Shown here piece after piece: positions 1,614-59,959 of a DNA stretch of 64,000 nt. The notes under the pieces were generated by a model. It was not told the origin of the DNA and ran no database searches. It was given only the letters and a program-made list of their open reading frames with translations. The position numbers and the translations under genes are program-made. The stretch's first letter is position 1, and every line of letters begins with the position of its first letter. The stretch comes from Spirochaetia bacterium (GTDB lineage: Bacteria > Spirochaetota > Spirochaetia > SZUA-6 > Bin103), in assembly GCA_965198005.1 (NCBI GenBank), contig CBDAOI010000003.1, forward strand, positions 448,001 through 512,000, in the 5' to 3' direction.

Positions 1614-1878
1614 AAAGGACTTGCTGGCTCATCCTCTTGACATGACTGCGCAATGTCCAGTTCCATTTCGCCCAAGACGGCCGTAGCGCAACCGTGTGTG
1701 GACAGGCCATCGGAAGCGGGCAAACCCGCTCGCGGCCCGGAGCCTGGCAAGCGGGAGTGCGTCGTCGGACCGCGGGGGAGATTGCACGATGGGCTCTACT
1801 GGTGACTGTAGTTCGTTCGAGGCCATGACTGCGCTCCGGGCGCGGGAGCAACGCCGCGTAAGCACCGGCCTTATACAT

Positions 1879-3425
1879 ATGCCGCATCCGCCGCTGACCG
1901 GGCGGCGGGCCCCGCGCGGCGGGCGGCCCGGCCTCCGCCGCTTCGCCCGGGCGTTCGCCGCCGCGGCATTGCTCGCGCTCTTCGGCGCCCTCGCTCCGCC
2001 GGCGCAGGCCCAGACCTGCACCGACAACGACATCGACCTCGTGCGGGGAAAGAACGAGTCGGAAGGCAGCGTCCAGATCTGCCACGACAACTAGTGGCGC
2101 TCGGTCTGCGACGACGAACTAAAGGTTGCTTCCGAGCTTCCGACAACATTACTGCCAACGGCTGGGCGTTCGCCGGGGTCGTGTGCCGCCAGCTCGGCCA
2201 TGCCACCGGGACCCCGACAACCTCGTCGCAGTTCGGCGCGATCTTTCCCGTGAGTTTCTGGCTTGACGACGTGGTGTGCGACGGCACGGAGGCCAATCTC
2301 GGCGCCTGCGCGCACGCCGGCTGGGGAACGAACAACTGTTCCTTCAGCGAGCGGGCGGGCGTGCAGTGCACGGTGGCCGCGTCGGGGCTGACGGCGACGG
2401 GCGGAGACAACGCCTCGAGCTACACCGCGACCAAGCATGTCAACCTGATCGATTACGTGTTCCAGGTGCGCGCGGTGAATGCCGGGGGCGGGAGCGGGCC
2501 GTCGAACGAGGCGGCGGCGACGCCGCTGCACCCGGACGCGCCGCCGGCGCCGACGGTGAGCGCGCCCGCGGGCACGGCGGGGCTGCTGGAGGTGAGCTGG
2601 ACGGAGCCGACCGCTGGAGCTTACGTGGTGCGGTACTGGCCGGCCGATGAAGACGGCAGCACGCGGCGGACCAGGTCGGCGTCGGACCAGAACGCGCTGG
2701 TGGCTCTGGTCGCCGGCGTCAGTGACTGCGCCGATGTCACCACCGCCCATCTCGCCGCCATCACCGGCGAGTTGGACCTGGGAAATCAGGACCCCAAGAT
2801 CACCGCCCTCGCGGCCGGGGATTTCGACGGGCTGAACTCGCTGACGACACTGGGTCTGTCGGGAAACGCTTTAACCACGCTGCCCGCCGGGGTGTTCGAC
2901 GACCTGACCGCACTGAACAGGCTGGATCCTAGCCACAACACTCTGACCGAGCTTCCCGCCGGGGTGTTCAAGAAACTGACCGCGCTGAGGTTTCTACTGT
3001 TGCGGTACAACGATCTGACCGAGCTTCCCGACGGGGTGTTCGACGGGCTGACCGCGCTGAGCCAGCTCTGGCTGGACCGGACCGCGCTGACCGAGCTTCC
3101 CGAAGGGATGTTCGTCGAGCTGACCTCGCTGAACTTGGGTGATCGGTCGGCAAACGGTCATCAGGATCGAAGCGGACTCCCGCTCGGTGGTGGACGAAGG
3201 CGCACCGTTGCGCTTCACGCTGTCGCGCGACCAACCCCACGGCAGCCTCCGATCGCGAAACCGGCGGAACACGAAGTCGCCGCAAGCGCCGCGGTGAACG
3301 TGACGGCGGTGAACGACCCGGCCACGGGCGCGCCGATGGCCGGCCGTGTGCGGCACCTCCTCCCCCTGTGGGCAGTACGAGTTGACGACAAGTGGTCTTG
3401 CTATTGGTCTCGGGATGACTACTAG
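1879..3425 (+). pseudogene. Disrupted secreted mosaic protein: signal peptide, SRCR domain, FN3 fragments, LRRs, cadherin-linker remnant
   Basis: Signal ending AQA-Q; EGSVQICHDN*WRSVCDD..VVCRQLG..WLDDVVCDGTE..C.HAGWG.NNC..ERAGVQC; YVFQVRAVN; LPAGVFDDLTAL repeats. TAG at 2092 and frameshift at about 2120-2160. Confidence 0.8.
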
Positions 3426-3480
3426 AGAGCCGAGTGTCGGGATGTGCAGTGGCCGTCGAGGACGCGGCGCGGGTCTTCCC

Positions 3481-6400
3481 ATGACCTCCGCCGTCGACCC
3501 CGGTCCGGTGCGTGCCCGCGCAGGTCGGGCCTGGCCCGCAGTGGCTGGACTGCTGCTGCTCGCGACGCTGGCCCCGGAGCCGGCCCATGCGCAGACCGGC
3601 ATCTGCGGGCGGACAGAGGTGGTGCGCGACGCGCTGGTGGCTCTGGTCGCCGGCGTCAGTGACTGCGCCCTTGTCACCGACACCCATCTTGCCGCCATCA
3701 CCGGCGAGCTGGACCTGGAAGGCGAGCTGGATCCGGAAACGGGAAATTATGTCCCCAAGATCACCGCCCTCGCGGCCGGAGATTTCGACGGGCTGACCTC
3801 GCTGACCACGCTGGATCTCTCCTTCAACGATCTGACCACGCTGCCCGACGGGGTGTTCGACGAGCTGACCTCGCTGACCACGCTGGAACTGCTCCACAAC
3901 AACGATCTGACGCTGACCGACGGGGTGTTCGACGAACTGACCTCGCTAACGGGTCTGTATCTCTTCAACAACGGGCTGACCACGCTTCCCGACGGGGTGT
4001 TCGACGAGCTGACCTCGCTGACCCATCTGCAACTGCACCACAACAACGATCTGACGCTGCCCGACGGGGTGTTCGACGGGCTGACCTCGCTGACCGTTCT
4101 GCAACTGCATGTCAACGGGCTGACCTCGCTGCCCGACGGGGTGTTCGACGAGCTGACCTCGCTACTGAGTCTATTTCTGAACCATAACGAGCTGACCTCG
4201 CTGCCCGACGGGGTGTTCGACGAGCTGACCTCGCTAACGGGTCTATTTCTGAACGATAACAAGTTGACCACGCTGCCCGACGGGGTGTTCAACGAGCTGA
4301 CCTCGTTGACCACGCTGAACCTGCAGGAGAATCCCGGGGCGCCCTTTGCGCCCACCGCCGTGGCCCTGCCCGATGACGGAACGATTCCCCTCGCCGGAGG
4401 CACGGTGACGCTCGACGGCAGCGCTAGCGGCGGGGCGTGGGGCACGAATGTCACCTATTCCTGGGCGCTGACCAATCCGGCGAACGGGGTGACGGTGACG
4501 TTTGACGATAACGCGAGCGCCAAGCCGGTGGTGACGATCCCGGCGCTGGCGGAGAACACCGAGCTTACCTTCACCCTCACCGTGACCGGTCAAGGCGGCA
4601 CACACGGCATTTCCCCCGCCACCGCCACCGCCACCGTGACGGCGAGGGCAAACACCGCCCCGGACGCGACGGACGCGACGGTCAGCACCGACGAGGACAC
4701 GGCCTACGACTTCGATGCCAGCGACTTTAACTTCACCGACGACGACTCCGGCGACACGCTGGCGAGCGTGAAGATTACGTCCCTGCTTGGGTCCGGCAAA
4801 GGCAGCCTGACGCTTGACGGGTCGGCTGTGACGGCAGACCAGGTGGTTTCCGGGGCCGACATCGATGCGGACAAGCTCGTCTACAACCCGCCGGCGAACG
4901 CCAACGGCGATGACTACGCCAGCTTCGGCTTCAAGGTGAGCGACGGCACGGATGAGAGCGTCTCGGCCTACACCATGACGATCGACGTCACGGCGGTGAA
5001 CGACGCCGCGACGGGTGAGCCGGCGATATCGGGCACGGCCCGGGTGGGGAGTGAGTTGACCGCGGCCAAGGGCACCATTGCCGACGTCGAGGGGTTGACG
5101 AGCGTCAGCTACAGCTACCAGTGGATACGTGTCGACGGCACGGAAGAGACGGACATCACCGGGGCGACGTCAAGCACCTACACCCTGGTGGCCGCCGACC
5201 AGGGCAAGAAGGTCAAGGTGAGGCTCGGCTTCACCGATGACGGCGGCACCGGCGAGGCGCGGACCAGCGCGGCCTATCCGGACGGTGCGACGGTGCTTCC
5301 GCCCCCGGCGGTGCTCATCAGCGGCGCCGACGACCTCAAGACCGGTGAAGATGGCACGACCGCCACTTTCCAGGTGCGGCTCGCCGCCGCGCCGGTGAAC
5401 GAAGTCACCGTGACGCCTTCGAGCAGCGACACGGGCGAGGGCACGGTGTCCGGGGCGCTGACCTTCACCACGACCAACTGGAACACCGCCAGGACGGTGA
5501 CCGTGACCGGCGTGGACGATGCGGACGTGGACGGTGAGCAGTCTTTCAGTATCACTTTCAGGGTTGAAAGCACGGACCCGGGTTACGCCGGCATCAGCGT
5601 CCCCGCGGTGTCCGTGACCAACGCCGATGACGAACCGCTGGCGCTGATCCTCGACGCGATCGCCACCGACAACACGGTGAACATCGCCGAGAAGGCGGCG
5701 GGGTTTGCGATCTCGGGCGCCACCGGCTCGCAGGGGGGTGTGAGTGTCACCGTGACGGTGGGCACGACGGAGCTGACGGCGACCTCCGTCGCCGCCGACC
5801 CGGCGACCTGGTCGGTGGCCGTGCCGGCGAACGCGGCCTACCTCACCGGCACGAGCGTGGCGGTGGCGGTGAGCGCGAGCAAGACCGGGTACACGGCGCC
5901 GGGCGACGTGACGCGCACTCTCGCGGTGGACCTGGCGGCGCCTTCGGCGACCTACACGGCGCCCTCTTCGCTGCAGGTGGGGGTGGCCATCGGCGCCATG
6001 ACGCCGAGCACCACGGACCCCGACATCGCCTCCTACGGCGCCACGGGTCTGCCGTCGGGGCTGGGCATCGACACCGGCACCGGGGTCATCGACGGCACGC
6101 CGGCCACGGCCGACGCCAACACCGCCGACGCCACGGTGACGGTGACCGACACCGCCGGCAACACCGCCACGGTCGACATCACCTTCCCGGCGGTGGCCAA
6201 GGGGGACCAGACGCTGACGGGGTTCGCCTACAGCCCCGCCACGGTGACCTATGGCGACACCGCCCCGACGGTGACGGCGCCGGGCGGGGTGCAGACCACC
6301 CTGTTGTACTCGGCCACGCCGGCCACGGTGTGCACGGTGGACGCGTCCACCGGCGCCCTGATCCTGGCGGGGGTGGGCGACTGCGTGATTACCGCCACCG

Positions 6401-9400
6401 CGGCAGGCGCCGCCGACTACAACGAGGCCACCGCGGCGTTCACCGTCACGGTGGCGGCGGCCGGCGCGCTGGCGCTGACCCTCGACGCCATCGCCACCGA
6501 CAACACGGTGAACATCGCCGAGAAGGCGGCCGGGTTTGCGATCTCGGGCGCCACCGGCTCGGAGGGGGGTGTGAGTGTCACCGTGACGGTGGGCACGACG
6601 GAGCTGACGGCGACCTCCGCCGCCGCCGACCCGGCGACCTGGTCGGTGGCCGTGCCGGCGAACGCGGCGTACCTCACCGGCACCAGCGTCACGGTGACGG
6701 TGAGCGCGAGCAAGACCGGGTACACGGCGCCGGGCGACGTGACGCGCACCGTCGCGGTGGACCTGGCGGCGCCTTCGGCGACCTACACGGCGCCCTCGTC
6801 GCTGCAGGTGGGGGTGGCCGTCGGCGCCATGACGCCGAGCACCACGGACCCCGACATCGCCTCCTACGGCGCCACGGGTCTGCCGTCGGGGCTCGGCATC
6901 GACACCGGCACCGGGGTCATCGACGGCACGCCGGACACGGCCGACGCCAACGCCGCCGAGGCCACGGTGACGGTGACCGACACCGCCGGCAACACCGTGG
7001 ACGTCCCGATCACTTTCCCGGCGGTGGCCAAGGGGGACCAGACGCTGACGGGGTTCGCCTACAGCCCCGCCACGGCATGGCGACACCGCTCCGGCGGTGA
7101 CGGCGCCGGGCGGGGTGCAGACGACCCTGTCGTACTCGGCCACGCCGGCCACGGTGTGCACGGTGGACGCGTCCAGCGGCGCCCTGACCCTGGCGGGGGT
7201 GGGCGAGTGCGTGATCACCGCCACCGCGGCGCCGAGCGACGACTACAACCAGGGGACGGCCACCTACACGGTCACGGTGGCGGCGGCGGGCACGCTGGCG
7301 CTGACCCTCGACGCCATCGCCACCGACAACACGGTGAACATCGCCGAGAAGGCGGCCGGGTTTGCGATCTCGGGCGCCACCGGCTCGCAGGGGGGTGTGA
7401 GTGTCACCGTGACGGTGGGCACGACGGAGCTGACGGCGACCTCCGCCGCCGCCGACCCGGCGACCTGGTCGGTGGCCGTGCCGGCGAACGCGGCGTACCT
7501 CACCGGCACCAGCGTCACGGTGACGGTGAGCGCGAGCAAGACCGGGTACACGGCGCCGGGCGACGTGACGCGCACCGTCGCGGTGGACCTGACGGCGCCT
7601 TCGGCGACCTACACGGCGCCCTCGTCGCTGCAGGTGGGGGCGGCCATCGGCGCCATGACGCCGAGCACCACGGACCCCGACATCGCCTCCTACGGCGCCA
7701 CGGGCCTGCCGTCGGGGCTCGGCATCGACACCGGCACCGGGGTCATCGACGGCACGCCGGCCACGGCCGACGCCAACACCGCCGAGGCCACGGTGACGGT
7801 GACCGACACCGCCGGCAACACCGCCACGGTCGACATCACTTTCCCGGCGGTGGCCAAGGGGGACCAGACGCTGACGGGGTTCGCCTACAGCCCCGCCTCG
7901 GTGACCTATGGCGACACCGCTCCGGCGGTGACGGCGCCGGGCGGGGTGCAGACGACCCTGTCGTACTCGGCCACGCCGGCCACGGTGTGCACGGTGGACG
8001 CGTCCAGCGGCGCCCTGACCCTGGCGGGGGTGGGCGAGTGCGTGATCACCGCCACCGCGGCGCCGAGCGACGACTACAACCAGGGGACGGCCACCTACAC
8101 GGTCACGGTGGCGGCGGCGGGCACGCTGGCGCTGACCCTCGACGCCATCGCCACCGACAACACGGTGAACATCGCCGAGAAGGCGGCCGGGTTTGCGATC
8201 TCGGGCGCCACCGGCTCGCAGGGGGGTGTGAGTGTCACCGTGACGGTGGGCACGACGGAGCTGACGGCGACGTCCGTCGCCGCCGACCCGGCGACCTGGT
8301 CGGTGGCCGTGCCGGCGAACGCGGCGTACCTCACCGGCACCAGCGTCACGGTGACGGTGAGCGCGAGCAAGACCGGGTACACGGCGCCGGGCGACGTGAC
8401 GCGCGCCCTCGCGGTGGACCTGGCGGCGCCTTCGGCGACCTACACGGCGCCCTCGTCGCTGCAGGTGGGGGCGGCCATCGGCGCCATGACGCCGAGCACC
8501 ACGGACCCCGACATCGCCTCCTACGGCGCCACGGGTCTGCCGCCGGGGCTCGGCATCGACACCGGCACCGGGGTCATCGACGGCACGCCGGACACGGCCG
8601 ACGCCAACGCCGCCGACGCCACGGTGACGGTGACCGACACCGCCGGCAACACCGTGGACGTCCCGATCACTTTCCCGGCGGTGGCCAAGGGGGACCAGAC
8701 CCTGACGGGGTTCGCCTACAGCCCCGCCACGGTGACCTATGGCGACACCGCTCCGACCGTCACCCCCCCTACCGGGGCTCAGACCACCCTGTCGTACTCG
8801 GCCACGCCGGCCACGGTGTGCACGGTGGACGCGTCCAGCGGCGCCCTGACCCTGGCGGGGGTGGGCGAGTGCGTGATCACCGCCACCGCCGCGCCGAGCG
8901 ACGACTACAACCAGGGGACGGCCACCTACACGGTCACGGTGGCGGCGGCGGGCACGCTGGCGCTGACCCTCGACGCCATCGCCACCGACAACACGGTGAA
9001 CATCGCCGAGAAGGCGGCCGGGTTTGCGATCTCGGGCGCCACCGGCTCGCAGGGGGGTGTGAGTGTCACCGTGACGGTGGGCACGACGGAGCTGACGGCG
9101 ACCTCCGTCGCCGCCGACCCGGCGACCTGGTCGGTGGCCGTGCCGGCGAACGCGGCCTACCTCACCGGCACGAGCGTGGCGGTGGCGGTGAGCGCGAGCA
9201 AGACCGGGTACACGGCGCCGGGCGACGTGACGCGCACCGTCGCGGTGGACCTGGCGGCGCCTTCGGCGACCTACACGGCGCCCTCGTCGCTGCAGGTGGG
9301 GGCGGCCGTCGGCGCCATGACGCCGAGCACCACGGACCCCGACATCGCCTCCTACGGCGCCACGGGTCTGCCGCCGGGGCTGGGCATCGACACCGGCACC

Positions 9401-12400
9401 GGGGTCATCGACGGCACGCCGGCCACGGCCGACGCCAACACCGCCGCCGCCACGGTGACGGTGACCGACACCGCCGGCAACACCGCCACGGTCGACATCA
9501 CCTTCCCGGCGGTGGCCAAGGGGGACCAGACGCTGACGGGGTTCGCCTACAGCCCCGCCTCGGTGACCTATGGCGACACCGCTCCGGCGGTGACGGCGCC
9601 GGGCGGGGTGCAGACGACCCTGTCGTACTCGGCCACGCCGGCCACGGTGTGCACGGTGGACGCGTCCAGCGGCGCCCTGACCCTGGCGGGGGTGGGCGAG
9701 TGCGTGATTACCGCCACGGCCGCAGGCGCCGCCAACTACAACGAGGCCACCGCGGCGTTCACCGTCACGGTGGCGGCGGCGGGCACGCTGGCGCTGACCC
9801 TCGACGCCATCGCCACCGACAACACGGTGAACATCGCCGAGAAGGCGGCCGGGTTTGCGATCTCGGGCGCCACCGGCTCGCAGGGGGGTGTGAGTGTCAC
9901 CGTGACGGTGGGCACGACGGAGCTGACGGCGACGTCCGTCGCCGCCGACCCGGCGACCTGGTCGGTGGCCGTGCCGGCGAACGCGGCGTACCTCACCGGC
10001 ACCAGCGTGGCGGTGACGGTGAGCGCGAGCAAGACCGGGTACACGGCGCCGGGCGACGTGACGCGCACCGTCGCGGTGGACCTGACGGCGCCTTCGGCGA
10101 CCTACACGGCGCCCTCGTCGCTGCAGGTGGGGGTGGCCGTCGGCGCCATGACGCCGAGCACCACGGACCCCGACATCGCCTCCTACGGCGCCACGGGTCT
10201 GCCGCCGGGGCTCGGCATCGACACCGGCACCGGGGTCATCGACGGCACGCCGGCCACGGCCGACGCCAACACCGCCGAGGCCACGGTGACGGTGACCGAC
10301 ACCGCCGGCAACACCGCCACGGTCGACATCACCTTCCCGGCGGTGGCCAAGGGGGACCAGACGCTGACGGGGTTCGCCTACAGCCCCGCCACGGTGACCT
10401 ATGGCGACACCGCTCCGGCGGTGACGGCGCCGGGCGGGGTGCAGACGACCCTGTCGTACTCGGCCACGCCGGCCACGGTGTGCACGGTGGACGCGTCCAG
10501 CGGCGCCCTGACCCTGGCGGGGGTGGGCGAGTGCGTGATCACCGCCACCGCGGCAGGCGCCGCCGACTACAACGAGGCCACCGCGGCGTTCACCGTCACG
10601 GTGGCGGCGGCCGGCGCGCTGGCGCTGACCCTCGACGCCATCGCCACCGACAACACGGTGAACATCGCCGAGAAGGCGGCCGGGTTTGCGATCTCGGGCG
10701 CCACCGGCTCGGAGGGGGGTGTGAGCGTCACCGTGACGGTGGGCACGACGGAGCTGACGGCGACGTCCGTCGCCGCCGACCCGGCGACCTGGTCGGTGGC
10801 CGTGCCGGCGAACGCGGCGTACCTCACCGGCACCAGCGTGGCGGTGACGGTGAGCGCGAGCAAGACCGGGTACACGGCGCCGAGCGACGTGACGCGCACC
10901 GTCGCGGTGGACCTGGCGGCGCCTTCGGCGACCTACACGGCGCCCTCGTCGCTGCAGGTGGGGGTGGCCGTCGGCGCCATGACGCCGAGCACCACGGACC
11001 CCGACATCGCCTCCTACGGCGCCACGGGTCTGCCGTCGGGGCTCGGCATCGACACCGGCACCGGGGTCATCGACGGCACGCCGGACACGGCCGACGCCAA
11101 CACCGCCGACGCCACGGTGACGGTGACCGACACCGCCGGCAACACCGTGGACGTCCCGATCACCTTCCCGGCGGTGGCCAAGGGGGACCAGACGCTGACG
11201 GGGTTCGCCTACAGCCCCGCCACGGTGACCTATGGCGACACCGCTCCGGCGGTGACGGCGCCGGGCGGGGTGCAGACGACCCTGTCGTACTCGGCCACGC
11301 CGGCCACGGTGTGCACGGTGGACGCGTCCAGCGGCGCCCTGACCCTGGCGGGGGTGGGCGAGTGCGTGATCACCGCCACCGCGGCGCCGAGCGACGACTA
11401 CAACCAGGGGACGGCCACCTACACGGTCACGGTGGCGGCGGCGGGCACGCTGGCGCTGACCCTCGACGCCATCGCCACCGACAACACGGTGAACATCGCC
11501 GAGAAGGCGGCCGGGTTTGCGATCTCGGGCGCCACCGGCTCGCAGGGGGGTGTGAGTGTCACCGTGACGGTGGGCGGGACGGACCTGACGGCGACCTCCG
11601 CCGCCGCCGACCCGGCGACCTGGTCGGTGGCCGTGCCGGCGAACGCGGCGTACCTCACCGGCACCAGCGTCACGGTGACGGTGAGCGCGAGCAAGACCGG
11701 GTACACGGCGCCGGGCGACGTGACGCGCACCGTCGCGGTGGACCTGGCGGCGCCTTCGGCGACCTACACGGCGCCCTCGTCGCTGCAGGTGGGGGCGGCC
11801 GTCGGCGCCATGACGCCGAGCACCACGGACCCCGACATCGCCTCCTACGGCGCCACGGGTCTGCCGTCGGGGCTCGGCATCGACACCGGCACCGGGGTCA
11901 TCGACGGCACGCCGGACACGGCCGACGCCAACGCCGCCGAGGCCACGGTGACGGTGACCGACACCGCCGGCAACACCGTGGACGTCCCGATCACTTTCCC
12001 GGCGGTGGCCAAGGGGGACCAGACGCTGACGGGGTTCGCCTACAGCCCCGCCACGGTGACCTATGGCGACACCGCTCCGGCGGTGACGGCGCCGGGCGGG
12101 GTGCAGACGACCCTGTCGTACTCGGCCACGCCGGCCACGGTGTGCACGGTGGACGCGTCCAGCGGCGCCCTGACCCTGGCGGGGGTGGGCGAGTGCGTGA
12201 TCACCGCCACCGCCGCACCGAGCGACGACTACAACCAGGGGACGGCCACCTACACGGTCACGGTGGCGGCGGCGGGCACGCTGGCGCTGACCCTCGACGC
12301 CATCGCCACCGACAACACGGTGAACATCGCCGAGAAGGCGGCCGGGTTTGCGATCTCGGGCGCCACCGGCTCGCAGGGGGGTGTGAGCGTCACCGTGACG

Positions 12401-15400
12401 GTGGGCACGACGGAGCTGACGGCGACCTCCGCCGCCGCCGACCCGGCGACCTGGTCGGTGGCCGTGCCGGCGAACGCGGCGTACCTCACCGGCACCAGCG
12501 TCACGGTGACGGTGAGCGCGAGCAAGACCGGGTACACGGCGCCGAGCGACGTGACGCGCACACTCGCGGTGGACCTGGCGGCGCCTTCGGCGACCTACAC
12601 GGCGCCCTCGTCGCTGCAGGTGGGGGTGGCCGTCGGCGCCATGACGCCGAGCACCACGGACGCCGACATCGCCTCCTACGGCGCCACGGGCCTGCCGCCG
12701 GGGCTCGGCATCGACACCGGCACCGGGGTCATCGACGGCACGCCGGACACGGCCGATGCGAACACCGCCGAGGCCACGGTGACGGTGACCGACACCGCCG
12801 GCAACACCGACACCGTGTCGATCACTTTCCCGGCGGTGGCCAAGGGGGACCAGACCCTGACGGGGTTCGCCTACAGCCCCGCCACGGTGACCTATGGCGA
12901 CACCGCTCCGACCGTCACCCCCCCTACCGGGGTACAGACAACCTTGAGCTACTCGGCGGCGCCCGAGGGTGTGTGCACGGTTGACCCGTCCACGGGTGCC
13001 CTGACGCTCGCGGGAGTGGGCGAGTGCGTGATTACCGCCACCGCGGCGTCGAGCGCCGACTACAACCAGGGGACGGCCATCTACACGGTCACGGTGCCGG
13101 AGCTGACTTTGGTGAGCGTGTGGGACGCGCAGGCCGGGGAGGGCGAGGACATGACCTTCACGGTGTGGCTCTCGAAGACGACCGGGACGGACGTGACGGC
13201 GGACTGGACGGCCTCGATCGAGCGCGGCGACACGGCGGCGGCGGCGGATCTCGGGTCGACCACGAGAGGGACGGTGACGGTCGCGGCGGGGTCGAGGACA
13301 GGGACGTTCAGCGTCGCGACGGCCGACGATGCCACCGACGAGGAGAACGAGACCTTCACGGTGCGGCTGTCGAACCTGTCGTCGAACTCGCAGATTGGAG
13401 ACCCGGGGGCGACGGGCACGATCATCGACGACGACGTCTCGCCGTTCGAGCCGGCAACCATCCGCAGCGTGACGGTGGTGAGCGGCCCGGGCGCGGAAGG
13501 GGTATGGAGCACCGGGGAGCGTGTCGAGGTCGAGGTGCGCTACGACAAGCCGGTGGTGGTGGAGCGGCCGGATTGCTGGACCTACAACGCCGACGGAAGC
13601 TGCCGGCCGCCGGGTCCGTACGTGCTGGTGGCATTCCGCTCCGACGCGCGCCCGGGGTACGGCGAAGTGCTGTCGGACCCGCCGGCGCCGTACGAGAGCG
13701 GCTCGGGGACGGACCGGCTGAGGTTCGCCTACACGGTGGGCGCGGACGAGGACGGCGCGCGGGGCGTGTGGCCCTTTAGCGACGGCATGTTGCTGCGGGG
13801 CGCGACGATCCGCACGCTGGAGGGCGGGGAGGGCGCCTCGAGGTACACGCGCACGGGGGTGTTGCAGGTCACGGTGGAGCCGCGGTCCGGCGCGTGGACG
13901 GCGGGCGACCGGGTGCGGGTGAAGGTCAGGTTCGCGGGTTCGGTGCAGTATACGCCGCCCGCGGAGCCGCAGAACCTGGACCGGGTGGAGGTGACCGGGG
14001 GCACGCCGACGATCGGTCTGCTGGTGGGGGACCCGGAGCAGCGCAGGCTGGCGCGCACGGCGTCGTACGAGAGGGGTTCGGGGACGGACACGCTCACGCT
14101 CACGTTCGAGTACGCGGTGACGGGCGGCGACGGGCGGGTGAGCGCGGTGGAGGTGGTGGCCGACAGCCTGGCGCGCAACGGGGCGACGATCCGCAACGAG
14201 CATGGCTACGACGCGGAGCTGGATCACCTGGGTACGCTGTGGCACTCGTCGCTGGCGGATCGGCCGGGTTCGACGACGGAGCCGGTGACTATGTCGGTGG
14301 CGGACGCGCGGGTGCGCGAGGCGCCGGGTGCGACGCTGGACTTCGCGGTGACGCTGAGCCGTGCGGCAGCGGGTGCGGTGACGGTGGCCTATCGCACGGT
14401 GGACGGCAGCGCGCGGGCGGGGTCGGACTACACGGCGCGGCAGGGCACGCTGAGCTTCGCTGCGGGCGAGACGGCGAAGACGGTGCGGGTAGCGGTGCTG
14501 GACGACGCCCATGACGAGGGCGAGGAGAAGATGGGGCTGGTGCTGTACCGGGCGTCGGGGGCGATCCGGGATGACTACGTGGCCGTGGGGACGATCGAGA
14601 ACGCGGACCCGCTGCCGGCGGCGTGGCTGGCGCGGTTCGGGCGCACGGCGGCCGGGCAGGTGCTGGCGGCGGTGGGCGAGCGGCTGCGCGGCGGCGGGCA
14701 GACGCAGGCGACGGTGGCCGGCCAGCGGCTGCAGGCGGCGGACGCTGAGGCGGTGGCCGCGGCGCAGGCCGCCTACGAGCGGGCGTGGGCACAGCGGCTG
14801 CAGGAGGGCCGCCTGCAGGAGCGGCCGCGGGCGCCGGCGCTGCGCGACCTGGTGGCGGGCAGCTCGTTCAGCGTGACCGCTACGGCGGACGCCGGCGCGG
14901 AGCAGGCGCCGTCCGCGGAGCCGGGCGGGCGCTGGACGGTGTGGGGGCGCGGGGCGTGGTCGCACTTCGCCGGCAGCGCCGACGGCGGCGAGCTGCAGGT
15001 GGACGGCGACGTGATCGGCGCCACCGCCGGCGCCGACTACGAGCGGGGGGCGCTGCTGGCCGGTCTGGCGCTGGCCTACAGCACCGGCAGCGGCACCTAC
15101 GACCATGACTCGGAGCGCTCCGGAACCGTGGCGAGCACCCTGCTGAGCGTGCACCCGTACGCGCGGCTGGCGCTGCACGAGCGGCTGGCGGTGTGGGGGC
15201 TGTTCGGCTACGGGCTGGTCGGGCACCTGGAGCTGGACGATGCGGCGGCGGACGCGGTGGAGACCGGCACCGGGCTGCTGCTGGGAGCGTTCGGCGTGGA
15301 CGGGCTGCTGCTGGCGGCGGCGCACAGCGGCGGGCTGGAGCTGGCGGCGCGGGCGGACGGACTGCTGCTGCGCATGAGCTCGGCGGCGGCCACGGGGCTG

Positions 15401-16042
15401 GCGGCGAGCGCGGCGGACCTGAGCCGCTGGCGGCTGCTGCTGGAGGCCAGCTACGCCGGGCTGCCGCTGCTCGGCGGCGAGCTGAGGCCGGCGGTCGCGG
15501 TGGGCGGCCGCTACGACGCCGGCGCGGCGGAGACCGGCGCGGGCCTGGTGCTGAGCGGGCGGCTGAGCTACGCGCTGCCGGCGTTGGGGCTGACGCTGAG
15601 CGCCGGCGGCGAAGGGCTGCTGGTGCACGAGGAGGAAGGCTTCCGCGAGTGGGGAGCCGGCGGCTCGCTGCACTTCGATCCTGGAGCGCCGGGCCGCGGG
15701 CTGGCGCTGAAGGTGGAGCCCTCCTGGGGCGTGGCCGGCAGCGGCGCCGGCCGCCTGTGGGCGCTGCCGGACGCCGCCACCCTGGCGCCGGCGGCGGCGC
15801 AGCCGTCCCCCGGCGCGCGCCTGGCCGCCGAGCTGAGCTACGGCCTGGACGCGCCCGGCGCGGCCGGTGCGCTCACCCCCTACGCCGGCGTGGCGCTGGC
15901 CGCCGACGGCGCGCGCACCTGGCGCCTGGGCACCCGCCTGCGCCTCGCCTCCGGCCTCGCCGTCAGCCTGGAGGGCACCCGCGCCGAGCTCGTCTCCGCC
16001 GCCGAGCACACCCTCGCCCTCATCGCATCGCTGCGCTGGTAG
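3481..16042 (+). CDS. Giant autotransporter-like adhesin (~4,190 aa if repaired): signal peptide, LRRs, PKD/cadherin-like, 9 Ig/He_PIG repeats, Calx-beta, C-terminal beta-barrel; one frameshift near 7075
   Basis: ORFs 3346..7079 and 7097..16042 join once a 5-nt deletion (acggcatggcg vs acggtgacctatggcg in other repeats) is restored. ATGLPSGLGIDTGTGVIDGTP, DDAHDEGEE, amphipathic strands and terminal W. Confidence 0.85.
3757..4330 (+). repeat. 72-bp (24-aa) leucine-rich repeat array, about 8 units
   Basis: gacggggtgttc recurs at 3847, 3919, 3991 and onward; LTSLTxLxLxxNxLTTLPDGVFDE. Confidence 0.9.
5638..13095 (+). repeat. Nine tandem 831-bp (277-aa) near-identical repeats
   Basis: Unit starts at 5638, 6469, 7295, 8126, 8957, 9788, 10619, 11450, 12281; unit 2 is 826 bp. 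Confidence 0.95.
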
Positions 16043-16096: not shown

Positions 16097-16917
16097 AAGC
16101 AGGTGCGGGAGTGGTACAACGGCTATAGCTGGATGGGCGACGAGAAGGTGTACAACCCGTACGACGTGCTGCTGCTGCTGCGCCGCCGAAAGTTCGCCGC
16201 GCACTGGTTCGAGACGGGGACGCCGGCGTTCCTGGTGGACACGCTGTTCGAGCGGCGGGTGTCGTCGGTGGCGTTGGACGAGATGGTGAGCACCGCGGAG
16301 CTGCTGTCGACCTTCGACGTGGAGGCGATCGGCACGGAGGCGCTGCTGTTCCAGACCGGCTACCTGACCATCACGGGGGAAGAGGAGCTGGGCGGCATGG
16401 CGCTGTACCGGCTGGGCTATCCGAACCGTGAGGTACGGCAGAGCTGAACGAATACTTGCTGAGCCATCTGGTGCAGGACCCGGCGCGGCAGACGGCGAAC
16501 AGCATGCGCCTGGCGCGGCTGCTGGAGGCGGTCGATTGCGAAGGCCTGAGAGGTCTGTTCCACGCCTTTTTCGCGAGCATCCCGTACCAGTGGTACACCA
16601 ACAACGACATCGCGAACTACGAAGGGTACTACGCGAGCGTGTTCTACTCGTACTTCGCGGCGCTGGGGTACGAGATCGTGGTGGAGGAGTCGAGCAGCCA
16701 CGGGCGGCTGGACCTGGCGGTGCGTGCCGGCGGGCAGGTGTACCTGTTCGAGTTCAAGGTGGTGGAGCTGGCGCCTGCCGGGTCTGCCCTCAAGCAGTTG
16801 CAGGAGCGGGACTACGCGGCAAAGTACCGGGGCGAGGGTCAACCGATCCACCTCGTCGGGGTGGAGTTCAGCCGCGACACCCGCAACGTGACCGCGTTCG
16901 AGGTGGCCGCCGGCTGA
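16097..16917 (+). pseudogene. AAA/PD-(D/E)XK copy 2: 3' half only, 1-nt frameshift near 16445
   Basis: QVREWYNGY..NREVRQS then LSHLVQDPARQ..FEVAAG; the upstream leader gggtttaag is fused directly to mid-gene. Confidence 0.9.
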
Positions 16918-17135
16918 CGATCCCCCGACCGGCGGCGTGGGCGACGGCGAAGGTCCGCGCTAGCGACGGCTCGGTGCCGTGCTTCGGGGACCGAACGTGC
17001 GCGGCGCGAACTCTTCCGTGATCTCGAATCGCGTAAATCGCGTAACAAGAATCCACGGCTTGTCATACCGTGTAAAGGTAAATTACACTTTGCGCATGAT
17101 CGGGCGCCTCTGCGGATAATGGGTGCCCCCGGAGG

Positions 17136-22186: not shown

Positions 22187-22217
22187 CCGTGCGGAGCCGT
22201 CGGGTTTAAGATACGCC

Positions 22218-23768
22218 ATGATCAGGCGCCGGCTGCCGATCGGGATGCAGACCTTTCGCGAGCTGCGCGAGCTGGATTGCTACTACGTGGACAAGACCGC
22301 CTACGTGAAGCGGCTGCGCGACGAGGGCAAGCACTACTTCCTGTCGCGGCCGCGGCGGTTCGGCAAGAGCCTGTTCCTGGACACGCTGAAGGAGTTCTTC
22401 GAAGGCAACGAGGCACTGTTTGAGGGGCTCTACATCCACCACCGCCACGACTGGACGGAGCGCCATCCGGTGGTGCGGCTGAGCTTCGGCGGCGGCAACT
22501 TCAAGGAGCCGGGATACCTGGATACCAACGTGATGGCGCAGTTGGACGGCATCGAAGTCGCGGCCGGCGTGAGTCCCCGGTACGCGACCGCGCCGGAGCG
22601 GTTCGGGTATCTGATCAGGTCGCTGCACGAGCAGACCGGGCAGCGGGTGGTGGTGCTGGTGGACGAGTACGACAAGCCGATCCTGGACGCGCTGGTGGAG
22701 AAGCCGGAGGTGGCGCGCGCCAACCGCGACTACCTGCGCGGGCTGTACGGGGTGATCAAGGACTCGGACGCGCACGTGCGGTTCACGTTCCTGACCGGCA
22801 TCAGCAAGTTCTCGAAGGTGAACCTCTTTTCGCAATTGAACAACCTCACCGACCTGACCCTGGATCGGCGCTACTCGGCGATCTGCGGGTACACGGAGGG
22901 CGACCTGGAGACGGTGTTCGCGCCGGAGCTGGACGGGCTGGACCGGGAGCAGGTGCGGGAGTGGTACAACGGCTATAGCTGGCGCGGGACGGAGAAGGTG
23001 TACAACCCGTACGACCTGCTGCTGCTGTTCGACAGCGGCGAGTTCGCGGCGCACTGGTTCGAGACGGGGACGCCGGCGTTCCTGGTGGACACGCTGTTCG
23101 AGCGGCGGGTGTCCTCGGTGGCGTTGGACGAGATGGTGAGCACGGCGAAGCTGCTGTCGGCGTTCGACGTGGGGGCGATCGGCACGGAGGCGCTGCTGTT
23201 CCAGACCGGCTACCTGACGATCACCGGAGAGGAGACGCTGGGCGGCATGGCGCTGTATCGGCTGGGCTATCCCAACCGGGAGGTGCGGCAGAGCCTGAAC
23301 GAATACTTGCTGAGCCACCTGGTGCAGGACCCGGCGCGGCAGACGGCGAACAGCATGCGCCTGGCGCGGCTGCTGGCGGCGGTCGATTGCGCAGGCCTGC
23401 GGGAGCTGTTCCATGCCTTCTTCGCGAGCATCCCGTACCAATGGTACACCAACAATGACATCGCGAACTACGAGGGCTTCTACGCGAGCGTGTTCTACTC
23501 GTACTTCGCGGCGCTGGGATACGAGATGGTGGTGGAAGAGTCGAGCAGCCACGGGCGGCTGGACTTGGCGGTGCGTGCCGGCGGGCAGGTATACCTGTTC
23601 GAGTTCAAGGTGGTGGAGCTGGCGCCGCCGGGCTCTGCGCTGGCGCAGCTGCAGGAGCGGGACTACGCGGCCAAGTACCGGGGCGGGGGCGAGCCGATCC
23701 ACTTGGTCGGGGTGGAGTTCAGCCGCGACACCCGCAACCTGACCGCGTTCGAGGTGGCGCCCGGCTGA
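22218..23768 (+). CDS. AAA-ATPase-like + PD-(D/E)XK nuclease, copy 3, intact (516 aa)
   Basis: Uninterrupted frame with Walker A and B, WYNGY, YNPY, WFETGTP and nuclease motifs. Confidence 0.92.
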   Translation: MIRRRLPIGMQTFRELRELDCYYVDKTAYVKRLRDEGKHYFLSRPRRFGKSLFLDTLKEFFEGNEALFEGLYIHHRHDWTERHPVVRLSFGGGNFKEPGYLDTNVMAQLDGIEVAAGVSPRYATAPERFGYLIRSLHEQTGQRVVVLVDEYDKPILDALVEKPEVARANRDYLRGLYGVIKDSDAHVRFTFLTGISKFSKVNLFSQLNNLTDLTLDRRYSAICGYTEGDLETVFAPELDGLDREQVREWYNGYSWRGTEKVYNPYDLLLLFDSGEFAAHWFETGTPAFLVDTLFERRVSSVALDEMVSTAKLLSAFDVGAIGTEALLFQTGYLTITGEETLGGMALYRLGYPNREVRQSLNEYLLSHLVQDPARQTANSMRLARLLAAVDCAGLRELFHAFFASIPYQWYTNNDIANYEGFYASVFYSYFAALGYEMVVEESSSHGRLDLAVRAGGQVYLFEFKVVELAPPGSALAQLQERDYAAKYRGGGEPIHLVGVEFSRDTRNLTAFEVAPG

Positions 23769-23912
23769 CGGCACCCGTACCGAGCCCGTCTCGGCCGCCC
23801 CCGACCACCCTCGCCTTCGCCGGCACAACGTGCACGCGGCGGCATTGGCCGCCCCGTGAGACAGCCTCCGAGACTGCCCCCGCCGCGCCGGAGCTTGCCG
23901 CGGGAATTCAGG

Positions 23913-25000
23913 TTACTCGGTCGTCCGATCCGACTCTTCGAGCCGTCGGCGGAGTGCCTGGAAGGCTTCCTGGTCGATACCGGTAGCCTCCTTGATGACC
24001 GACCACTCGATTCCAGCCCGCAAGAAGCTCTCGATCGTGCCAAGTTGGCCTTCCTGGCGGCCTTCCTGGCGGCCTTCCTGGCGTGGCGGCCCTCGTGGCG
24101 GCCCTCGTGGCGGCCCTCGTGGCGTCCCTTCCGGAGCCCCTCCTGGAGCCCCTCCTGGAGCAACTCCTCTGCGTAGGTCTTCATGTCTCCTCCCGGTCCT
24201 GGTACGTGCCGCCCCAACGCCTCGCCGAACTCCCTCACGTTCTGCTTGTCCTGCGTCGTAATGACATACCTCACGATGGCTCTGAACAGTTCGATCCGAC
24301 CGCTCCTGGCCAACTCGCCCATGTACTGCGCCGCCATCAGCAGCGCCGCGCGCACCTGACTCACCCGCCGCCGCGCCGCCGCCATCAGCGCAAGCTGCGC
24401 CACCCGCCCCAGCGCTTCCCCGCGCACCTCGCCCACCGCCGCCTGCGACTGGTCCACCAGCAGGTGCTCGAAGCGTGGCGTCCACGGCCACTCCCGTACC
24501 GCCTCCGCAAACAACTCCCCGAACTCCCGCGCGTGCCGCCAGCGCCGCTTACCCTGGTAGAACACGACCGGCACGATCGGCGGCAACTCCCGCCGCTTCT
24601 TGTCGGCCCGCAGGGCATCCGCCCAGACACGGCAACAGTACTCCAACAACCGGAAGCTCATCCAGCGGTTCGGCGTCGATTGATGCTCGAACAGCACGTA
24701 CAGCAACAGCCGCTGCGGCTCGCTCCCCGCCTCGCCGGCCCCCGCCTCGCCGGCCCCCGCTTGCCCAGCGCCCGCTTGGCCGTCACCCGCTTGCCACTGC
24801 ACCTCGAACAGCAGGTCGGACTGGCTGGCCTCCAGCTCTTCGTCCACGTAACTGCGATCCTGCAGGGTCAACGTCGACCAGTCCAGCCTGGTGCTCAGCC
24901 ACGCCGGCAGATTCGGGCGCAGCAAGCCGGCCGCCTCGGGCGCATTGGAGAACACTTTGCGGAACAGGTTGTCGTGCGGCTGATACAACTCGCGCGCCAT
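23913..25000 (-). CDS. Rpn/YhgA-like PD-(D/E)XK nuclease; frameshift near 24085 within the EGRx repeats
   Basis: PHDNLFRKVF, SDLLF, LFEHQS, LPPIVPVVFYQG, MKTYAEEL..EGRHEG. The natural C-terminus (..GIEWSVIKEATGID..) is in another frame ending at 23913. Confidence 0.85.
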
Positions 25001-25139
25001 GCCGTGCGCCCGCCACCGTATTGGCGCCACGAATCGCTGTCAAACGCAATCGATGCTGCGATGCTGCGGGGTGCGAGTCGTTGTCGGTGCCGCGCTCTGC
25101 AAGCCACGTCAGCCCCTTCAGAATCGCTCAATATGAGAC

Positions 25140-27940: not shown

Positions 27941-28052
27941 CCCCGGCCGTGCTGCGCTCGAAGCGCAACTCCAACGCTTCCCGGATACTGTCCAGGAGCC
28001 CGCGCTGCCTTCCTGACCGTGCCGACTCGTCGCGTAGAGGTTAAGATACGCC

Positions 28053-29664
28053 ATGGTCAGGGGCCGGCTGCCGATCGGGATACAGACCTTCCGCAAGCTC
28101 CGGGAGCGGAACTGCTACTACGTCGACAAGACGGCTTACATAGACCGGCTGCTCCACGAGGGCACGCACTACTTTCTGTCGCGGCCGCGGCGGTTCGGCA
28201 AGAGCCTGTTCCTGGACACGCTGAAGGAGCTGTTCGAGGGCAACGAGGATACTGTTCGCGGGGCTCTACATCCACCAGCGCCACAACTGGACGGAGCGCC
28301 ATCCGGTGGTGCGGCTGAGCTTCGGCGGTGGCAACTTCAAGGAGCCGGGGGAACTGCACGAGGACGTGATGCTCCAACTGGAGGATCTGGAGGAAGAGGC
28401 TGAGATCGCGGTCCGCCGAGTGAGCGCCCCGGCGCGCCTGCGCCGCTTGCTGCAGGCGCTGCATCGCAAGACCCGGCGGCGGGTGGCGGTGCTGGTGGAC
28501 GAGTACGACAAGCCGATCCTGGACGCGCTGGTGGAGAAGCCGGAGGTGGCGCGCGCCAACCGCGACTACCTGCTCGGATTGTACGGGGTGATCAAGGACT
28601 CAGACGCGCACGTGGAGTTCACGTTCCTGACCGGCATCACCAAGTTCTCGAAGGTGAACCTGTTCTCGCAATTGAACAACCTCACCGACCTGACGCTGGA
28701 TCCGGTCTATTCGGCGATCTGCGGCTACACGGAGCGGGATCTGGACACGGTGTTCGCGCCGGAGTTGGGCGGCCTGGACCGGGAGCAGGTGCGGGAGTGG
28801 TACAACGGCTACCGCTGGCGCGGGGAGGAGAAGGTGTACAACCCGTACGACGTGCTGCTGCTGTTCGACAGCCGCGAGTTCGCGGCGCACTGGTTCGAGA
28901 CCGGGACGCCGGCGTTCCTGGTGGAGACGCTGTTCGAGCGGCGGGTGTCCACGGTTTCGCTGGACGAGATGGTGAGCACCGCGGAGCTGCTGTCGACCTT
29001 CGACGTGGAGGCGATCGGCACGGAGGCGCTGCTGTTCCAGACCGGCTACCTGACCATCACGGGGGAAGAGGAGCTGGGCGGCATGGCGCTGTACCGGCTG
29101 GGCTATCCGAACCGGGAGGTGCGGCAGAGCCTGAACCGGGTGCTGTTGCGCCGGCTGGTGCAGGACCCGGCGCGGCAGACGGCGAACAGCATCCGCCTGG
29201 CGCGTCTGCTGGACGCGGTCGATTGCGAAGGCCTGCGAGGTCTGTTCCATGCCTTCTTCGCGAGCATCCCGTACGAATGGCACACGAACAACGACATCGC
29301 CGACTACGAAGGCTTTTGCGCGAGCGTGTTCTACTCGTACTTCGCGGCGCTGGGGTACGAGATCGTGGTGGAGGAGTCGAGCAGCCACGGGCGGCTGGAC
29401 CTGGCGGTGCGTGCCGGCGGGCAGGTATACCTGTTCGAGTTCAAGGTGGTGGAGCTGGCGCCGCCGGGGTCTGCGCTGGCGCAGTTGCAGGAGCGGGACT
29501 ACGCGGCCAAGTACCGGGGCGGGGGCGAGCCGGTCCGGATGGGAGGCAACCGCCCCCGCTCGGAGCCAGCCGGTCTCGGCGAGGGGCAACCGATCCACCT
29601 GATCGGGGTGGAGTTCAGCCGCGACACCCGCAACGTGACCGCGTTCGAGGTGACCGCCGGCTGA
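28053..29664 (+). pseudogene. AAA/PD-(D/E)XK copy 4: 1-nt insertion near 28250 and a 20-aa insert near the C-terminus
   Basis: gaggatactg vs gaggaactg; the 5' part is almost identical to window 1-770, including the gttaagatacgcc leader. Confidence 0.9.
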
Positions 29665-29769
29665 CGGCACCCGCGCGCCGCCGCGCTACCGCACCTTCGC
29701 CGTCAGATGACCCACGTGCTCAAGGTATGGCATGTCGACCCCCTTCCTGGAGACCTTCATCAACCAAGA

Positions 29770-34178: not shown

Positions 34179-34554
34179 CAACGACATCGCGAACTACGAG
34201 GGGTACTACGCGAGCGTGTTCTACTCGTACTTCGCGGCGCTGGGGTACGAGATCGTGGTGGAGGAGTCGAGCAGCCACGGGCGGTTGGACCTGGCGGTGC
34301 GCGCCGGCGGGCAGGTGTATCTGTTCGAGTTCAAGGTGGCGGAGCTGGCGCCGCCGGGGTCTGCGCTGGCGCAGTTGCAGGAGCGTGACTACGCGGCGAA
34401 GTACCGGGGCGGGGGCGAGCCGATCCCGATGGGAGGCAACCGACCCCGCGCGGAGGGAGCCGGTCTCGGCGAGGGGCAACCGATCCACCTGGTCGGAGTG
34501 GAGTTCAGCCGCGACACCCGCAACCTGACCGCGTTCGAGGTGGCGCCCGGCTGA
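34179..34554 (+). pseudogene. AAA/PD-(D/E)XK copy 5: nuclease-domain fragment abutting the phoA stop
   Basis: NDIANYEGYYASVF..FEVAPG; carries the same type of 20-aa insert as copy 4. Confidence 0.9.
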
Positions 34555-34594
34555 CGGCACCCGCGCGCCCCTTCCGGCTCGGGCTCCAAAGGCG

Positions 34595-36400: not shown

Positions 36401-36462
36401 GATCGGGCTGGAGTTCAGCCGCGACACCCGACGTGACCGCGTTCGAGGTGGCGCCCGGCTGA
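36401..36462 (+). pseudogene. AAA/PD-(D/E)XK copy 6: terminal ~60-bp remnant
   Basis: ggagttcagccgcgacacccg..gcgttcgaggtggcgcccggctga. Confidence 0.85.
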
Positions 36463-36573
36463 CGATCGCGGCCGGGAGCGGACTTGGCGACAACCGGCGC
36501 TCGCACCGCCGGAATCCACGCGCGCCCTGGCCGGCGTTCCGCTGCCGCCGGCGCCGTGGAAGCGGATTGAGGT

Positions 36574-58734: not shown

Positions 58735-59032
58735 ATGGCTGAAAGCGGGGGTGCTCGAAGAAAGCACGTTGAAACGAGCCGATACCGGAGCTCCTCAAGG
58801 CGGAGTGCTCAGCCCCATGCTCTCCAATATATTCCTGCACCATGTGCTGGATGAGTGGTTTGAGCGTGTGGCGAAGCCGCGGCTGAGCGGTTCGTGCCGA
58901 TTGGTGCGATTCGCTGACGATTTTGTGATGACCTTCGAAGACGACCACAGCGGCAAGCGCATGCTGGCCGTCCTGGGAAAACGGCTTGGCCGTTACGGGC
59001 TGGTCCTGCATGCGACCAAGACCCGGTATGTG
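58735..59032 (+). mobile_element. Group II intron reverse transcriptase internal fragment
   Basis: WLKAG..GAPQGGVLSPMLSNIFLH.VLD..RFADDF..GLVLHATKT. Confidence 0.88.
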
Positions 59033-59959
59033 GGTGCTGCGGCAGGACTACATCCGCACGGCCTGGTCAAAGGGGCTGAGGGAGAGAGCGGTCGTTGTCA
59101 GACACGCCATCAAGAACGCCCTCATCCCGATCGTCACTCTGGTTGGACTGCAGTTGCCCATCCTGGTGGGCGGCTCCGTTATCATGGAGAACATATTCAA
59201 CCTGCCGGGGTTGGGTCGTCTCATGCTGGCCGCGCTCACCGACAGGGATTACCCGATGGTCTCCGGAGTGAACCTGGTGTTCGGCACGGCGGTGGTCGGG
59301 GTGAATCTCATGGTCGACCTGCTCTATGGCTACCTGGATCCGAGGGCCCGTTATCAATGAGCGACCCCACCGCGGCACCGGGAGCCGCTTCTTTCTTCGT
59401 CAGGCTGTGGCGGGAGAAGTCACTCGGCACGATCAGCGGGATCATCATCCTGGTCGTGATCCCGGTGGCTATCCTGGCCGATGTCCTGGCCCCGTATGGA
59501 CCTGTTGAGCCGCGTCATCTACGGCGCGCGGCTGTCGATGGTCGTCGGTCTGGCCGCGACCGCGCTCAATGTCGTGGTTGCCCTCCTGATCGGCGGCACG
59601 TCGGGATTCTTTGGCGGCAAGTTGGACCTGGTGGTGCAGAGATTCGTCGATGCCTGGATGGCTATCCCGGGACTGCTCCTGCTGTTGACGATCATGTCCA
59701 TCGTGGTGGGGTGATCATCAGTGAGGCTTCGCTGAGCTTTCTCGGCTTCGGTCTGCCGGTCGGCGTTCCGAGCTGGGGTGCCATGCTCAGCCGGGAAGGG
59801 CGTGAGTACATGCAGCAGGCGCCATGGCTGGCGCTCTGGCCGGGCCTGTGCCTGACGATCGTGGTCTACAGCCTGAACATGTTCGGCGATGCGGTGCGCG
59901 ACCTGCTCGACCCGCGCCTCGGCGGTGGCGGCGGTCGTCTCGGTGCCGCCGCCGCCTGA
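59033..59959 (+). pseudogene. Second DppB 3' fragment plus internally deleted DppC
   Basis: VLRQDYIRTAWSKGL..DPRARYQ; MSDPT..REKSLG with deletions near 59500 and 59710. Confidence 0.85.

Follow-up and report, generated by a model that had tools for sequence, protein, structure and literature searches.

A decayed surface-protein gene with a split SRCR domain in a bacterium from sponge metagenomes, and its intact bacterial relatives

[quoted passage not shown] Here we describe an SRCR domain encoded in a 64,000-nucleotide stretch of bacterial DNA (positions 448,001 to 512,000 of contig CBDAOI010000003.1, assembly GCA_965198005.1; hereafter the window), which comes from a Spirochaetia bacterium, an uncultured high-GC organism that occurs in sponge metagenomes. 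The domain lies in a gene at 1825-3425 that we read as a pseudogene, the decayed form of a multi-domain surface-protein gene, and we take the SRCR domain of its intact relatives to be a cation-dependent binding module (probability of this reading roughly 0.85). The genome of 4.89 Mb is 90% complete and consists of four contigs from a long-read-style assembly, the contig of the window being about 2 Mb long. All coordinates are window positions on the + strand.

In the excerpted text of PMC10855680, the SRCR is presented as a mainly animal domain that is greatly expanded in sponges, where a 'group C' with a seventh cysteine occurs. The animal group-A domains of SCARA5, MSR1/SCARA1, MARCO and Mac-2 binding protein (M2BP) have the same fold as the bacterial family described here (template-modelling score, TM, 0.8-0.9; root-mean-square deviation, rmsd, 1.2-1.5 Å; 34-41% identity to the modelled domain of P0178, an intact relative), the same six core cysteines, the same acidic cation positions and, likewise, no group-B cysteine pair. 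The bacterial family differs from them in being carried on chains of bacterial FN3, cadherin-like, Calx-beta and LRR domains instead of collagenous or transmembrane receptors, in an extra N-terminal cysteine pair (in none of 38 non-family rows of our alignment) and, in part of the family, in a longer loop, and the copy in the window is broken. For the cation sites of the DMBT1 domain SRCR8, the available part of PMC7043408 reports that mutation of D1019 or D1020 abolished binding. Equivalents of D1019, D1020, D1058, D1059, N1081 and E1086 appear to be kept at the same spacing in the window's family, and DMBT1-like proteins are its best-scoring non-bacterial relatives; unlike DMBT1/SALSA, which belongs to group B, the family has neither the group-B cysteine pair (0 of 15 rows) nor tandem arrays.

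A similar setting is offered by the eukaryotic-like proteins of sponge symbionts, in which animal-type extracellular modules (ankyrin, LRR, FN3, cadherin) are likewise built into large secreted proteins. The window's gene joins an SRCR to FN3 and LRR, whereas the sponge literature, in the sections retrieved and including those of PMC4850255, discusses the SRCR as a host receptor only. The term SRCR was not found in any of the symbiont-genome papers listed by the search, the phrase 'bacterial SRCR' appeared in no paper of the literature search, and PMC4448552, on lysyl oxidases, and PMC10469786, on Palauibacterales, contain nothing on bacterial SRCRs. The SRCR domains of other bacteria, in metagenome-assembled genomes (MAGs) of Myxococcota, Bdellovibrionota, Binatia, Verrucomicrobiota and Thermodesulfobacteriota, differ from the window's family, which forms a clade of its own with its own cysteine pair.

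The SRCR domain of the window is encoded by 2011-2372, behind a signal-peptide-like leader, and is split over two reading frames. Frame 1 runs from a leader ending in ALAPPAQA into QTCTDNDIDLVRGKNESEGSVQICHDN, meets a TAG at 2092-2094 and goes on with WRSVCDDE; from about 2136 the domain is read in frame 3, where it includes NGWAFAGVVCRQLG and, further along, FWLDDVVCDGTEANLGACAHAGWGTNNCSFSERAGVQC, and it ends at 2369. The N-terminal third (2011-2127, frame 1) contains cysteines 1 and 2 of the family as well as the first canonical cysteine, accompanied by its pair of Asp residues. Five canonical cysteines fall in the C-terminal two thirds (2144-2372, frame 3), as do the cation-site positions WLDD, N-C and S-E-R-A-G. 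All six canonical cysteine codons are kept, spread over both frames, and by sequence all six DMBT1-type cation-site positions are encoded. The frame-3 piece matches PF00530 with an E value of 1e-12 and 48.6 bits (cut-off 26.1) over profile positions 31-100 of 100, corresponding to residues 26-93 of its open reading frame (ORF), or 2169-2372. A six-frame search of the genome scored the same domain at 51.7 bits and returned no second SRCR match in the whole 4.89 Mb. No Pfam match was obtained with the frame-1 piece alone or with the out-of-frame stretch 2095-2190. The frame-1 piece is 86% identical to residues 1-37 of P0178 and 74% identical to P0189, and the frame-3 piece is 79% identical to P0178 and 77% identical to P0191 by tblastn. 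The initial annotation had read an SRCR consensus across the TAG and a frameshift and had noted that the ORF track divides the domain between two ORFs, at 1696-2094 and 2094-3425; both observations are borne out, and the SRCR match is genuine and far beyond chance. No continuous ORF encodes the complete domain, which is interrupted by the TAG and by an 8-nt duplication at 2128-2143.

Three lesions were located in the gene, none of them in a homopolymer. The first is the in-frame TAG at 2092-2094, which cuts the domain after 27 residues at a position occupied by Gln in four and by Glu in one of the five intact relatives aligned with the window (alignment A2). TAG is an ordinary stop codon here, because it closes eight of the 17 Pfam-supported ORFs of the window, with TGA closing another eight and TAA one. 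The second lesion, at 2128-2143, is an 8-nt unit perfectly doubled in tandem (GCTTCCGA twice), which shifts the reading from frame 1 to frame 3 and is the sole tandem repeat of 5-14 nt in 2095-2185. When the long-loop relative P0191 was compared by tblastn, the frame-1 segment ended at 2133 and the frame-3 segment began at 2133, and the two segments overlapped on exactly the residues of the doubled unit, so that the duplication explains the frame change. The third lesion is the loss of 46 codons (138 nt) from the first FN3 domain, with its junction at about 2409, between two Gly-Gly-Asp motifs.

An assembly slip in this record does not account for these lesions, since a protein from another assembly shares the shifted reading and a contig from sequencing run X1 is identical over 2021-2176. 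The protein, P0151 (489 residues, on a 30-kb contig), starts, like the window's second ORF, in the shifted reading and differs from that ORF by substitutions and by 46 extra residues in the first FN3, indicating that the duplication is older than the split of the two populations. The X1 contig is 156 nt long, shows zero differences and includes the TAG. The SRCR domain of another family member, P0161, is missing its first third and has a stretch of about nine residues read in the wrong frame, and decayed copies are thus present in other assemblies too.

The probable 5′ end and leader of the gene occupy 1825-2010, with in-frame ATG codons at 1825 and 1879. A basic stretch, a hydrophobic segment (AAAALLALFGALA) and then AQA before the mature QTC make up the leader, which resembles the N-terminus of intact P0178 and the pre-leader motif of P0155 and is a putative signal peptide. 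Downstream of the SRCR domain, FN3 remnants are found at 2373-2702, comprising a first FN3 short by the 46 codons and then a second FN3-like stretch. The fn3 profile matches the second ORF with an E value of 2.7e-5 and 24.7 bits, just below the cut-off of 25, and covers profile positions 51-81 in the window as against 7-81 in P0151; the segment 2391-2702 is 78% identical to residues 268-371 of P0178. Leucine-rich repeats follow at 2820-3131 (LRR_8, E value 5.8e-21; LRR_14 at ORF residues 243-346) and then break off, and this run has 76% DNA identity to the LRR head of the next gene (3629-4093). The order SRCR, FN3 and LRR is therefore as the initial annotation gave it. The tail of the ORF, at 3132-3425, holds no recognisable domain, with no Pfam match for the ORF after the LRR, and neither a beta-barrel nor any other anchor follows; a Calx-beta-like fragment in another frame, at 3139-3297, is a by-eye sighting only. 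A 163-nt contig from the sponge metatranscriptome library X10 equals 2941-3102 without a difference, which is no proof of transcription. Runs X9 to X13 cover small shares of the stretch, the X10 contigs falling in four of 30 bins.

Just at the start of the gene, contig depth at 1801-1867 rises 10- to 50-fold in three metagenome runs, and many contigs have loose ends at 1818. This stretch is single-copy in the window's own genome, and a similar pre-leader (Met-Thr-Ala...Arg-Ala-Arg-Glu-Gln) opens P0155; it may be a leader common to many genes of the community. The FN3 segment 2391-2702 is also 73% identical to P0154, whose cluster mates are labelled Candidatus Palauibacter (Gemmatimonadota) and which, in the window's own genome, matches the FN3 of the pseudogene only. 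Adhesin modules may thus be common to several phyla of sponge-associated bacteria.

Intact relatives came from two protein searches, one limited to the SRCR-FN3 stretch of the gene, which yielded 22 proteins out of 3,452 candidates, and a second family search, which yielded 17 proteins (eleven from ENA and six from animals). P0178, an intact protein of 1,408 residues, is the longer cluster mate of the likewise intact P0152, and both are ordered as signal peptide, SRCR, three FN3 domains, an unassigned stretch, Calx-beta and a C-terminal region. PF00530 matches P0178 with 75.5 bits, and full-length matches (profile positions 2-100) were obtained for P0178, P0152, P0155, P0186 and P0182 with E values from 4.5e-21 to 1.4e-34. 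The eleven additional ENA proteins measure 1,081-2,417 residues, and ten of them carry an SRCR of the window's family; one relative lies on a contig of 7.5 Mb. P0190 has four SRCR domains of another type and was counted as a different bacterial SRCR. Each family protein has a single SRCR of the family type, in some cases accompanied by a divergent SRCR-like stretch, on a chain with FN3, cadherin, cadherin-like and Calx-beta domains. The SRCR stands at the N-terminal tip, directly after the signal peptide, in P0178, P0183 and P0195 and inside the chain in P0186, P0182, P0188 and P0191, and the loop after Cys-Asp-Asp is 10-17 residues longer in part of the family, including the window copy. These intact relatives appear to be an undescribed SRCR family with an extra cysteine pair of its own. 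Their modular build, with FN3, LRR, cadherin-like and Calx-beta domains, is consistent with the earlier proposal that the SRCR belongs to an adhesin toolkit, and intact copies, for which the initial annotation suggested a search, do exist in other assemblies (P0178, P0152 and others); the window's own genome contains no second SRCR.

The fold was assessed on the intact domain of P0178, about 80% identical to the window copy, and not on the broken copy itself. An AlphaFold2 model computed from a five-row alignment had a predicted local distance difference test score (pLDDT) of 36.5; with a 53-row alignment the pLDDT was 93.7 and the predicted TM score (pTM) 0.86. The best Foldseek matches of this model were all SRCR structures (SCARA5, M2BP, SCARA1, DMBT1 and MARCO; TM 0.8-0.9, rmsd 1.2-1.6 Å), among them SCARA5 7c00 (E value 2.8e-13, TM 0.82/0.87, rmsd 1.2 Å) and M2BP 1by2 (TM 0.89/0.91, rmsd 1.2 Å). 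The family sequence profile likewise matched solved SRCR structures, namely MSR1 6j02 (E value 2.3e-24), SCARA5, MARCO, M2BP, DMBT1 and CD163. The intact domain thus folds as an SRCR, in which a curved beta-sheet cradles a single helix.

The cysteines set the family apart. The six canonical cysteines, which make up three disulfides, are invariant in all 16 family domains and in all 53 rows of alignment A4 (15 family rows and 38 others), and every one of the 16 family domains has eight cysteines. The extra pair is present in 15 of 15 family rows and in 0 of 38 others. The group-B pair, as in DMBT1, CD163 and CD5/CD6, is absent from the family (0 of 15 rows) and present in 10 of the 38 other rows; its two columns are occupied in the family by Ser, Trp or Thr and by His or Tyr, in agreement with the alignment to CD163. 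The family-specific pair probably ties the N-terminus to strand 2 as an extra disulfide. At the cation sites, Asp35, Asp36 and Glu102 are conserved in 16 of 16 domains and Asp74 and Asp/Glu75 in 15, while Asn97 is found in 12, with Asp in three more, and the positions are spaced like D1019/D1020, D1058/D1059, N1081 and E1086 of DMBT1. Because the six cysteines and these acidic and amide residues of DMBT1 type are kept, binding by the intact domains would be expected to depend on calcium.

SRCR domains proved to be rare among the relatives of this bacterium, as had been proposed. PF00530 was detected in one of 60 other relatives (none of ten from the same genus; the positive one, G022, is of the same family and carries three SRCR domains of a different clade) and, in a sample of the class, in two of 400 further genomes. 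Species-representative genomes were scanned with just two peptide patterns, which captured a subset of bacterial SRCRs, and 13 loci were obtained; the MAGs that hold them are labelled Alphaproteobacteria, Binatia, Myxococcota, Bdellovibrionota, Verrucomicrobia (Verrucomicrobiota) and Thermodesulfobacteriota. The genome labelled Alphaproteobacteria, G424, encodes about five SRCR domains, one of which falls inside the family clade in the tree; the ORFs that carry these domains reach 7,361 residues. Its IlvC is only 61% identical to that of the window, compared with 89% for members of the same genus and 75% for members of the same family, indicating that the module is common to distant lineages. 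IlvC relatives at about 74% identity fall in a cluster that has one member labelled Spirochaetaceae, and a search of the genome for the spirochaete FlaA family, whose control matched nowhere either, gave no match.

In a quick maximum-likelihood tree of 93 rows and 115 columns, in which nine of 90 branches were starred as well supported, the family forms one clade (SH-aLRT, the Shimodaira-Hasegawa-like approximate likelihood ratio test, 82) beside SRCRs of Myxococcota and Bdellovibrionota and a few animal rows, a placement with weak support, and bacterial SRCRs as a whole are scattered. The phylogenetic comparison proposed in the initial annotation recovers the family as a clade near other bacterial SRCRs, and no donor or direction of transfer can be named from it. 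A library-wide SRCR search ranked by summed score placed almost only multi-SRCR proteins in its top 150, and domains were then re-scored individually. The best non-bacterial domains belong to DMBT1-like proteins of a scallop, a snail, sea urchins, a hemichordate, a priapulid and the sponge Oscarella; identity to these domains is about 40-47%, and sponge SRCRs are not favoured in particular. Host mimicry, the role proposed in the initial annotation, is a hypothesis only. In G070, a 2.3-Mb genome of the same class, five full-length SRCR matches were seen (E values 1e-31 to 1e-33), at C1:436878-444879 (L018, L020 and L023), C1:690127 and C1:2179256, three of them within 8 kb in ORFs of 310-410 residues. 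These form a separate bacterial clade that adjoins animal DMBT1-like domains in the tree.

Since the domain is mainly animal and greatly expanded in sponges according to the excerpt of PMC10855680, and since the best-scoring library matches are animal DMBT1-like proteins, it could be asked whether the segment is eukaryotic DNA, mis-binned from the sponge or very recently transferred from the host. The GC content across the locus is 63-75%, like that of its surroundings, the locus is continuous with bacterial genes on the contig of about 2 Mb and has no introns, bacterial contigs as long as 7.5 Mb carry its relatives, identity to animal domains stays near 40-47%, and the family forms its own clade beside other bacterial SRCRs. 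Contamination by sponge DNA is excluded by this bacterial context, in line with the bacterial style noted in the initial annotation, and we give a eukaryotic origin of the segment in either form a negligible chance. It is also very improbable that the gene is intact in the organism and that long-read assembly errors gave rise to the TAG, the change of frame and the FN3 loss. The genome is a four-contig, long-read-style assembly, and the giant adhesin gene that follows also changes frame, between about 6300 and 7100, possibly in error-prone repeats; the three lesions, however, differ in kind, one being a substitution, one an exact 8-nt duplication and one a deletion of 138 nt, the identical X1 contig, of short-read type, spans both the TAG and the duplication, and P0151 has the shifted reading in a different assembly. 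Continued use of the locus, by a reversible slippage switch at the 8-nt repeat, by read-through with frameshifting or as a shorter frame-3 protein starting at GTG 2094, we hold to be improbable. All cysteine and cation-site codons are intact, a two-copy repeat could in principle contract, and the metatranscriptome library holds the identical 163-nt contig; contraction of the repeat would nevertheless leave the TAG and the FN3 loss in place, TAG often serves as a genuine stop here, a typical phase-variation tract does not consist of just two copies of an 8-mer, a frame-3 product would have no signal peptide and would miss the first third of a disulfide-bonded domain, and RNA libraries can hold DNA.

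Several points weigh against a decayed gene whose intact relatives bind ligands in a cation-dependent manner. Run X1 is possibly from the same sample as the assembly, and its contig is for that reason not independent. P0151 is known as a protein reading and says nothing about the TAG in its DNA. Some contigs in X1 and X8 are variants in which 2100-2170 or 2116-2170 gives way to a short loop of 33 or 20 other letters with the frame kept, as in short-loop relatives such as P0153. The window still has every one of the eight cysteine codons and every cation-site codon in intact form, so that inactivation would be recent or, less probably, the gene is rescued somehow. P0178 has no TIGR01414 match at an E value of 0.01 and no Pfam autotransporter match, and no binding data for any bacterial SRCR were found in the literature. 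We nonetheless favour the pseudogene reading, under which the TAG, the 8-nt duplication, the loss of 46 FN3 codons, the truncated LRR run and the lack of an anchor would leave the window copy non-functional. The initial annotation had treated the SRCR as a working module merely overlooked by gene calling; with three independent lesions and no membrane anchor, that part of it does not stand.

The neighbouring giant adhesin gene (3346-16042) encodes an LRR head, a PKD-like domain, at least eight He_PIG Ig modules, Calx-beta and an autotransporter-like C-terminus. Its He_PIG Ig modules are near-identical repeats, and the change of reading frame between about 6300 and 7100 means that this gene is also broken or was mis-assembled in the repeats. 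Over its last 575 codons the gene shares 83% identity with the C-terminal end of intact P0178. TIGR01414 matches the giant protein with 20 bits (cut-off 16) and an E value of 3e-4 over only 89 residues, and Pfam gave no match to its C-terminal region. Surface display of the intact relatives by an autotransporter-like barrel is plausible but weakly supported by these sequence similarities.

Bacterial genes surround the locus, including those for MetE, ArgJ, MoxR, BatD, an oligopeptide ABC transporter, IlvC and alanine racemase (Alr), together with further adhesin-type genes that have He_PIG, Calx-beta, Big_9, FN3 and LRR domains. A gene with AAA-ATPase_like and PDDEXK_9 domains is present in at least three full copies and in fragments (1-1425, 16335-16922, 22206-23770, 28040-29666, 34179-34556 and 36402-36467) that share 85-97% DNA identity and are interleaved with the adhesin-type genes; possibly this is a mobile element, or one prone to recombination, by which the adhesin island is shuffled. 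A Transposase_31 (YhgA-like) gene lies at 23663-25030, and an ORF with a reverse-transcriptase domain (RVT_1) at 58751-59959 is probably part of a group II intron or retron.

The original gene would have encoded a surface protein of several domains, exported by the Sec route and arranged as leader, SRCR, FN3, FN3, LRR. Its intact relatives would be long adhesin-type proteins, some of which end in a C-terminal region like that of the giant neighbour, and their SRCR domain may act as a calcium-dependent binding module held away from the cell, with polyanionic or glycan ligands from the sponge matrix, sponge cells or other microbes as candidates. A wider proposal, which we put forward tentatively and consider doubtful, is that at least two distant lineages of sponge-associated bacteria share this SRCR subfamily, with its six-cysteine core, new N-terminal disulfide and intact cation sites, on giant adhesins as a counterpart or decoy of host SRCR receptors, and that it is gained, moved between heads and lost quickly, the window representing a recent loss.

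The gene in the window is dead, and the object of interest is the intact family. Annotation pipelines would split or miss the window's copy, which serves as a pointer to that family and as evidence of fast module turnover. With its predicted binding residues intact and a cysteine pattern of its own, the conserved SRCR family that bacteria from sponge samples carry on their surface proteins offers a testable molecule for symbiont-host recognition or evasion.

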